Shown here one piece after another: positions 10,190-11,537 of a DNA stretch of 64,000 bases. Position 1 is the stretch's first letter. Every line of letters starts with the position of its first letter. This DNA comes from Octopus sinensis (lineage: Eukaryota). The notes under the pieces are model-generated. The model saw only the letters and a list, made by a program, of their open reading frames with translations, did not search any database and was not told the DNA's origin. The stretch covers positions 82,460,001 to 82,524,000 of the forward strand of contig NC_043005.1 of the NCBI RefSeq assembly GCF_006345805.1, written 5' to 3'. Both the position numbers and the translations under genes were made by a program.

Positions 10190-11373
10190 TATTAAAAATA
10201 TGTTTCAAATATCTCTTGTGTTACAAAAAAAAAAAAAATGAGAGCATTTTAAAAATCTAAATTAGAGTGATATATCCATTAAAATTTTAGCAATTTTTGC
10301 GTATATAATAAAAACCATGTTTTTAATTGATTTTTTTTGTTTTACTTTAAAATTATATTTGTTTTCGAATATGAATTCTTCGTCTGTAAATTATATAAAC
10401 CAAACTTTACTACTACGAAGAAAAATACGAAAATTAAGTAGATAATATTAATAGACTGTTAAAAGGATACTGTTTTCTTTATGCTATTAAGAAATATTTG
10501 CAAGTAATTTTGTGTCTGGAATGTTTGTGAGGATTTTTGCATATAATTAGCAGCGTACAGAGAATCTCAACTACTCCTAATATGCGCCGCCACATGTCCG
10601 CTTGTACTTAGCAGGTCTTTGAAGCTGTGATTTCCTTTGGTATTCTTTTTGCATTCACCCAAAATCTCATAAAATTTTAAAGACTTTTTCAGTAGTAATA
10701 CATACATAGTTTATGTACATATAAACACTAGCATTTTAATGTAATCGGCAATAACATGTAAATACGTCTCAGTTAACAAAGAAATCGATTATTTACCCGG
10801 CGAGTTGATGATTGTAATTTATTGAGAAAAGTATACTTATAAAATGGTATTTCGTGAGTTTGAAATTTTAGAACGTTTTTCATTTTTAGTGTTGGAGTTC
10901 TTACACTTACATTGTACAACGTATCGTCTTGTAAGATTACATCATTCTATTGTATTTTCACATCCTAAAATGATATTAACATTTTATTGGTGTACAGAAT
11001 TACATAATGTTTCTGTCATTTAAATAATTATTGCTTGTTTAGTCTCCAATACAGTCATCCGCATTGTATCACACGTTGTTTTATATATAAGAAACTTAGG
11101 CTAGTCGATGTACAAAAATATTAGATACATTTAATTCGAAAATACTTACATACGTTTACATATAAAAGCGTCCGATTTACACAGAATAGAAATGATTTCA
11201 GAGGTTGAATAAGATTTTCACTAAAATTCTTATTCAACAATTAATTTTAACACCTGAGTAAGCTATTCTGAGTAAGCTGGACGTTTGTGTATATATATAT
11301 ATATTATTGTCGTTTTGTTTACCATGTAGGCAGTCATCGAAATCTTTGTTTGTCTTGTTGCCGATAGAGGGTC

Positions 11374-11466
11374 CCTTTCTTTCCTGATGAGAAGATTGCA
11401 TCATGCACCCTTTATTCCTTTGGAATGAAACCATGTGGTCTTCGAAACATTTGTCGAGAGTAAAGG
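11374..11466 (+). ncRNA. Canonical type I hammerhead ribozyme with extended stem II
   Basis: CCTTTCTTTC-CTGATGA-GAAGATTGCAT...ATGTGGTCTTC-GAAAC-ATTT-GTC-GAGAG(T)AAAGG; all three stems pair; GUC site at 11453-11455; lies in a ~200-bp insert (11304-11506) between TA runs. Confidence 0.88.
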
Positions 11467-11505
11467 AATTTTGTTAACATCTTCGTTCGACTCCATTCTT
11501 TCATT

Positions 11506-11537
<32 letters not shown>

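Follow-up and report, generated by a model that had tools for sequence, protein, structure and literature searches.

The insert at 11304..11508 on the plus strand of the window, i.e. the whole 64,000-nt stretch of octopus DNA analysed here, carries a hammerhead motif and belongs to a repeat family that is abundant, highly branched and dispersed. It is a 5'-truncated copy, probably of the 3' end (3' UTR or pseudo-LTR) of a Penelope-like element (PLE) targeting (TA)n, whose ribozyme would cut as a dimer and would be nearly inactive in this lone copy. The sequence-only reading had proposed that the hammerhead marks an independent PLE/retrozyme family, which is supported by the abundance of the family and the lack of kinship to a 563-bp array of hammerheads in the neighbourhood.

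The hammerhead motif

The motif occupies 11374-11466 on the plus strand and is real. Its core halves CUGAUGA (C3-A9, 11384-11390) and GAAAC (11444-11448) and the GUC (11453-11455) are intact, and the hammerhead consensus would place C17 at 11455 and the cut between 11455 and 11456. Stem I is built from 11374-11383 and 11456-11466 with 10 pairs and a bulged U11461, and stem II from 11391-11401 and 11433-11443 with 11 pairs, three of which are G-U. The loop of stem II contains an inner hairpin at 11411-11429, in which 11411-11418 pairs with 11422-11429 (8 bp, 3-nt loop). The three core blocks, the 10-bp bulged stem I and the 11-bp stem II extended by a second hairpin were thus found at the places and in the form described before. 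The type I consensus (C3 U4 G5 A6 G8 A9, G12 A13 A14, A15.1-U16.1, H17) holds at every position, stem I is open as in type I, and the base pair G10.1-C11.1 is present. The stem II domain comprises the 53 nt between the core halves, that is, the 11-bp stem with a 31-nt insert, and does not have the canonical metazoan geometry of a 4-bp helix II whose loop contacts loop 1. Stem III of the window copy, the 8-nt near-palindrome ACAUUUGU at 11447-11454, consists of A15.1-U16.1 and a C-G pair closed by the 4-nt loop AUUU. The term 'canonical', used in the sequence-only reading, is therefore too strong, since stem III is minimal (pair probability 0.00), stem II is about three times as long as the canonical 4 bp, and there is no Rfam hammerhead match.

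A descriptor scan of both strands of the window gave three motifs, the one with its core at 11384 and two in the 563-bp array. In 200 dinucleotide shuffles of the whole window, loose matches occurred at 0.02 per 64 kb, and there were no matches with stem I of at least 5 and stem II of at least 8. Rfam returned no match at the gathering score and no hammerhead family among the 18 at E<=10, and it likewise misses the hammerheads of the neighbouring array. Moreover, the stability of the 103-nt fold is unremarkable (z -1.54; 15/200 shuffles were equally good). The Rfam result and this modest z-score are what a chance match to the consensus would lead one to expect, but a comparable motif appeared in 0/200 shuffles and the variation of the family spares core and stems, and the probability of such a coincidence is practically negligible.

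Abundance of the repeat family

Twenty-four sequencing runs were found; 21 contain some of the 15 sampled words and none contains half of them. Four runs were aligned to 10700-11512 at 80% likeness, namely X1, X3 and X4, which are DNA-like, and X7, which is RNA by guess only, no run being recorded as RNA. The unique flank has a depth of 47.2 (X1), 9.9 (X3) and 47.9 (X4) with 0-1 differences, while the insert region gathers 1995, 950 and 1364 contigs, respectively. Over seven bins of the element, the summed depth is 484-19,014 (X1), 706-13,739 (X3) and 2,594-18,187 (X4) times that of the flank, which is an upper bound and not a copy number, since overlapping contigs are added together; hundreds to thousands of copies is the safe reading. 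In X7, 62 contigs match the family, which indicates presence only, and its zero depth on the unique flank tells neither way; the lack of cover at 11232-11259 in X4 has no evidential weight. The sampled words occur under seven organism labels. However, the three aligned labels carry the same unique flank with 0-1 differences, so the labels are no evidence of spread between species.

Within the window, blastn found no second copy of the insert. The hammerhead had been described as solitary, and this holds for the window, whereas the family is abundant in the public runs. The strict hammerhead pattern gave no match in viral or in metagenome contigs, and the loose pattern none in viral contigs. 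Three metagenome stretches matching the loose pattern (L001-L003) were rejected as chance, with no similarity beyond the pattern and no hammerhead fold. A search of the full-text literature gave no description of this repeat family, which specialist papers on PLE hammerheads or repeat databases may contain; it is apparently undescribed. In the giant squid genome, 235 hammerhead 1 matches have been counted, without detail (PMC6962438; this and the other cited sources are quoted from the parts available). The present family suggests that cephalopod hammerhead counts are too low.

Ends of the family and insertion into (TA)n

The insert is bounded by a (TA)7 run on the left (11290..11303), likely the target microsatellite, and a (TA)13.5 run on the right (11506..11532), which bears out the earlier description of a TA-flanked insert of about 200 bp. 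Up to 11512, where the aligned stretch ends, neither a target-site duplication nor an empty allele was seen. Depth steps and loose ends of the contigs mark its limits. A pyrimidine-rich tail (11467..11508, +) leads up to the 3' end shared by the family, and behind 11508 the loose ends read TCA and then (TA)n in at least 19 (X1), at least 14 (X3) and at least 21 (X4) contigs. The shared 3' end sits 53 nt past the cut site, and the window copy is without the last three letters. On the other side, the single-copy contigs of X1 and X3 read across the left TA junction and break off at 11333. Provided that contigs were built from 31-letter words, the sequence from 11304 on would be common to other copies and the junction private. 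Before 11306, at least five X1 and at least two X7 contigs continue into a common A-rich stretch, and three X4 contigs extend 19-68 nt further upstream, one of them with an inverted piece (opposite-strand joint at 11306). The shared 3' end, the private left junction and the upstream continuation elsewhere indicate that the window insert is a 5'-truncated copy of a longer element, in which the ribozyme lies in sense orientation. In addition, the summed depth over 11456-11483 is 1.8 (X1), 2.3 (X3) and 1.8 (X4) times that over 11372-11399. This step past the cut site may reflect copies that start at the cleavage site, or merely contig overlap and divergence.

PLEs of the Hydra clade insert into (TA)n and bear sense hammerheads with palindromic stem III near the 3' end (PMC8557442). 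The window family shares the sense hammerhead near the 3' end, with the cut site 53 nt from the shared end and a palindromic helix III. It also shows insertion into (TA)n, a fixed 3' end and 5' truncation, a combination not unique to PLEs. Among 150 frames of the window there is no PLE-type reverse transcriptase (RT) with GIY-YIG endonuclease, and the upstream part of the family is visible as short loose ends only. The two RVT_1 hits of the window lie far from the insert, and one of them has relatives with the LINE-type endonuclease domain PF14529. Partial tandems (pLTRs) and inverted 5' copies, as known from PLEs, are absent at this locus, the inverted 5' piece being carried by the one X4 contig. 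It is very improbable that the ribozyme rides on another carrier, a SINE-like or LINE-mobilised element comparable to Schistosoma SM-alpha instead of a PLE. The 5' truncation and fixed 3' end suit any target-primed retroelement, LINE-type RT frames exist in the window, and SINE-like hammerhead carriers have been described (PMC6765202); however, the palindromic stem III, the (TA)n flanks and the location of the ribozyme, in sense and 53 nt before the 3' end, match the PLE descriptions, and the insert has no similarity to other repeats of the window.

We also regard it as rather unlikely that the insert represents an isolated monomer from a family of non-LTR retrozymes. The working form of such a family would be a short array of head-to-tail units, which cleavage of the transcript would release and ligation would close into RNA circles. 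Retrozymes and PLEs are reported to be related (bioRxiv 10.64898/2026.07.22.740005), and this alternative departs from the PLE reading solely in the form of the master copies. The insert is a fragment without an ORF, its size is near the range of 170-400 nt, and mussel examples without canonical loop contacts exist (PMC7229834); monomers are described as widely dispersed and derived from pLTRs (bioRxiv 10.64898/2026.07.22.740005). Furthermore, the neighbouring array proves that TA-flanked tandems occur in this genome, and the matching X7 contigs, if RNA, would suit a transcribed family. On the other hand, a head-to-tail tandem of the insert is absent at this locus, and no joint from the 3' end of the element back to its start occurs among the loose ends listed, though contigs could fail to bridge a long (TA)n spacer, behind which arrays could hide. 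In X1, X3 and X4 alike the 3' end enters (TA)n, the left junction belongs to the window copy alone, and the 205-nt RNA shows no high degree of self-pairing (z 0.37).

Returning to the PLE reading, we assume from PLE biology that a tandem precursor RNA would bring two hammerheads together, that their two 8-nt palindromes would form one shared helix III, and that each ribozyme would then cut after C17. The RT and GIY-YIG endonuclease of the element would nick a (TA)n run and copy the RNA from its fixed 3' end, often halting early; in case of the window copy, reverse transcription into the (TA)n run would have halted after about 200 nt. The template of this copy was likely uncut at this ribozyme, since about 150 nt are kept upstream of the cut site; this agrees with an anole PLE that is reported to insert in vitro without any need for cutting (PMC11167929).

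Palindromic stem III and predicted activity

At position 11451 the family has A in 70-80% and G in 20-30% of the depth, together at least 99.9% in 4/4 runs. The corresponding alleles at 11447-11454, ACAUAUGU (70-80%) and ACAUGUGU (20-30%), are both self-complementary 8-mers, while the window copy has a private U at 11451 that gives ACAUUUGU. The energy of the dimer helix is -7.0 and -6.0 kcal/mol for the family alleles versus -2.9 kcal/mol for the window copy. That two independent alleles both preserve the palindrome agrees with the prediction of the dimer model, and by analogy with known PLE motifs the family ribozyme would likely cut as an RNA dimer. Most PLE motifs belong to truncated elements that stand singly, and a motif on its own failed to cleave, that of a Schistosoma PLE showing undetectable cutting (PMC4209133). 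An axolotl motif with one base pair and a palindromic tetraloop reached 6% cleavage within one hour as a monomer (PMC7229834), and 8/9 Xenopus dimers tested gave no product (bioRxiv 10.64898/2026.07.22.740005). The hammerheads of the 563-bp array cannot serve as a cis partner here, since they are on the opposite strand and have a different palindrome.

In the 96-nt fold, pair probabilities are 0.93-1.0 for stem I, 0.57-0.98 for stem II and 0.84-0.99 for the inner hairpin, and 0.00 for stem III, which is not stable within one molecule, as would be expected of dimer-acting hammerheads. The three-way junction takes up 0.3% of the folding ensemble at 93 nt and 0.01-0.02% at 203 and 403 nt, and stems I and II are disfavoured in the 203- and 403-nt contexts (mean pair probability 0.03-0.11; 0.03 and 0.10 at 203 nt), all of these figures being equilibrium predictions without tertiary contacts. 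The sequence-only reading had held that a minimum-free-energy fold without the three-way junction would refute it, and such folds were obtained at all four lengths (96, 103, 121 and 203 nt). This leaves the ribozyme as such undisproved, since motifs of this kind are reported to act as dimers. The further claim that the copy would cut any plus-strand transcript, such as a host intron, finds no support: the junction makes up at most 0.3% of the ensemble, the window offers no same-strand partner, and the dimer helix is weakened. The lone window copy is thus predicted by these models to be likely nearly inactive.

A possible tertiary element was considered. In the window copy, 11366-11372 in the 5' flank of stem I is complementary to 11407-11413 in the stem II loop (7 bp, -8.2 kcal/mol). 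G11371, central to this pairing, is private to the window copy; in X1 the position is C in 88% and U in 12%. The pseudoknot is therefore possible in the window copy, and the family, with mostly C at 11371, does not support it. It bears on the idea that the long stem II domain is a new tertiary support for monomer cutting, so that sense copies in introns would cut host pre-mRNA, which we consider improbable. A pseudoknot of this kind activates other hammerheads (PMC3088659), the 53-nt domain is kept across subfamilies, and the depth past the cut site is 1.8-2.3 times that over the 5' half of the core in the three DNA runs. Against this, the central G of the pseudoknot is private, a conserved palindrome is expected of dimers and not of monomers, the junction share is minute, no host gene was found around the copy, and the depth step is explicable by overlapping contigs or divergence. 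For the Pfam scan, 150/156 frames of at least 62 aa were used (five duplicate array frames and one microsatellite frame were left out, as were 155 frames of 50-61 aa). No host-gene domain was above cut-off in these 150 frames, in which short or domain-less exons would be missed; the hits above cut-off were RVT_1 twice and one mariner HTH. Even if intronic, an isolated copy whose palindrome is damaged would be an unpromising cutter of transcripts.

There is also a small chance of a farther-reaching role, in which the conserved 53-nt stem II domain would be a new functional module that stands in for the canonical loop contact or serves as a docking site for a protein, with intact members cutting efficiently in vivo. 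The 3' product of about 55 nt would itself be retrotransposed, which would account for the rise in depth at 11456. The copies, in their thousands, would form a genome-wide self-cutting layer in the long introns of an octopod, which present-day ribozyme searches do not detect. The family would be of greater significance if its intact members cut as monomers. In any case, its two palindromes and the private broken one offer a natural test series for the dimer model and the long stem II.

Variation of the family and the long stem II

Twenty-four positions of the insert have a variant at 5% or more, 15 of them within the ribozyme and 9/108 outside; the alignment at 80% likeness, from which these counts come, favours conserved copies. 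None of the 13 positions of the invariant core varies at this level in the four runs, which includes CUGAUGA in any run and GAAA (G12-A15.1, 11444-11447) across the family, and C17 is changed to U in 2-8% of the depth. Among the paired positions, G-U pairs vary in 5/5 cases, four of them to Watson-Crick pairs, versus 2/24 for Watson-Crick pairs (Fisher p 0.0002), and 2/61 core plus Watson-Crick positions vary versus 6/16 unpaired ones (p 0.0007). For example, G11427A turns a U-G of the inner hairpin into U-A in 18-33% of the depth, and C11375U retains its pair in stem I as U-G. However, G11437U (94-100% of the aligned depth there) gives a U-U mismatch in stem II, and G11460A (15-26%) disrupts a pair unless 11379 changes, one X4 loose end having U at 11379 (unphased); the element also varies little outside the ribozyme. 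This variation, which is unphased and demonstrates no double compensatory change, speaks for selection on the ribozyme structure.

The 3' arm found in X4 and X7 loose ends pairs with the 5' arm of the window copy over 11 bp (-14.1 kcal/mol versus -11.1 kcal/mol for its own arm), and the long stem II is a family trait, since the 11-bp pairing is kept. In a common subfamily with A at 11402, stem II appears by eye to extend to 12 bp, as far as unphased data go, and the inner hairpin is looser in the loose ends of other subfamilies (X4, X7).

Comparison with known hammerhead carriers

In its predicted mode of action the present hammerhead is like the dimer-acting type I hammerheads of PLEs and of amphibian retrozymes. 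The Hydra-clade PLE hammerheads resemble the present one in being of type I, in sense orientation near the 3' end and associated with (TA)n insertion, and in having a palindromic stem III with a very short loop, e.g. acag-tt-ctgt (PMC8557442). An octopus Hydra family, Hydra-1_Obim, exists (PMC8557442). The difference is that their stem II has 3-7 bp and a short loop, whereas here it has 11-12 bp and the core halves lie 53 nt apart; moreover, no ORF is seen here, and Neptune and Naiad also favour microsatellites. Identity with Hydra-1_Obim or Naiad_Ovul was rejected, since the printed ribozyme row and the 3' UTR in the supplement of PMC8557442 differ by eye. Nine short family motifs gave no match in the available part of that supplement, where line breaks can hide motifs.

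The minimal and near-minimal hammerheads of metazoan PLEs (PMC4209133) likewise have a palindromic helix III, G10.1-C11.1 and a helix II longer than canonical, and they occur mainly as single truncated copies in many subfamilies with covariation. However, their helix II is limited to 6-8 bp and their helix I to 2-5 bp, and position 9.1 carries an extra base (PMC4209133), while the window hammerhead has no extra base, a stem II of 11-12 bp with an inner hairpin and a 10-bp stem I. For reference, stem II has 4 bp in canonical hammerheads and 7-8 bp in Schistosoma PLE motifs (PMC4209133).

Non-LTR retrozymes, especially HHR_Amex1 of axolotl, are alike in being non-coding and very abundant, with dispersed monomers and a link to pLTRs (PMC7229834; bioRxiv 10.64898/2026.07.22.740005), and helix III of HHR_Amex1 consists of one base pair and a palindromic tetraloop (PMC7229834). 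Yet retrozymes are defined by tandem units and circular RNA, and HHR_Amex1 retains the loop 1-loop 2 contacts of the canonical form, for which the long stem II of the window family would presumably not offer a loop in the usual place. Type I hammerheads of chrysoviruses and megabirnaviruses also have a longer helix II and no canonical loop-loop contact (PMC13725137). They differ in having a helix II of 6-8 bp and a long stable helix III, owing to which they cut fast as monomers, and in being viral and not genomic repeats (PMC13725137).

The long stem II domain has a precedent in a PLE hammerhead, that of PLE-X1_sMoe from spike moss, with a stem II of 9 bp and a 35-nt loop, 53 nt in total, marked as noncanonical (PMC8557442). 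It comes from a plant element that is EN-minus, inserts into 28S rDNA and is unrelated in sequence (PMC8557442). The 11-12-bp stem II with inner hairpin is thus longer than in the literature compared, where a single case comes close in overall size. Since a great many PLE and retrozyme hammerheads have been described, the locus as such is no more than a common retroelement remnant. The novelty lies in the architecture, namely a stem II of 11-12 bp that encloses an inner hairpin and is kept across the abundant family, which is missed by Rfam and by published descriptors allowing 7-17 nt between the core halves (PMC8557442).

Neighbouring elements

The window is AT-rich and full of microsatellites and short repeats, the latter presumably resembling octopus SINEs. 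The 563-bp array at 12360..14224 on the minus strand, delimited by descriptor scan and blastn, consists of 3.3 units of about 564 bp with type I hammerheads of their own (C3 at 12697, 13260 and 13825). Its units are about 99% alike, with the stem III palindrome ACGUACGU and TA runs on both sides; the middle unit has GAAC instead of GAAAC, possibly a sequencing slip. Kinship between the insert and the array was rejected: the best blastn matches are 9 nt (E 0.57), in line with the earlier view that the two are unrelated. Next to the array, blastn revealed a 139-bp inverted partial copy of a unit (14234..14372, +), a layout described for PLE insertions (PMC8557442).

Just upstream of the insert, a piece of a different repeat family occupies 11148-11203 (summed depth 640-7,400 versus 10-48 for the flank). 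X1 and X3 have joints with short sides that lead from 11167 to 11287 and probably derive from further copies of that repeat. At about 9633-10192 lies an internally deleted element with terminal inverted repeats and, on the minus strand, the transposase-like start MEDKKVHFRHL, presumably mariner-like, and a mariner HTH fragment (PF17906) is found at 21576-21848. Two related LINE RT remnants, 75% alike, are located at 54899-56992 (-) and 3684-5131 (-); the former has an unbroken frame of 698 aa, and a TA run bounds each of them on the upstream side. For the longest RT frame in the window, the best named relative is from Argonauta hians (56% identity).

A further observation concerns Naiad elements. 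The 'HHR_half_core' in the 3' UTR of Naiad_Ovul, present also in Naiad_Obim (PMC8557442), looks by eye like a complete non-circularly permuted hammerhead, in which the cut-site block, the GAAAC block and the CUGAUGA block follow one another with possible stems of 6, 6 and 5 bp. This block order fits the type-SGC name of PMC10085705, whose main text, in the part available, mentions neither Naiad nor Octopus. If true, some Naiads said to be without canonical hammerheads would bear permuted ones.
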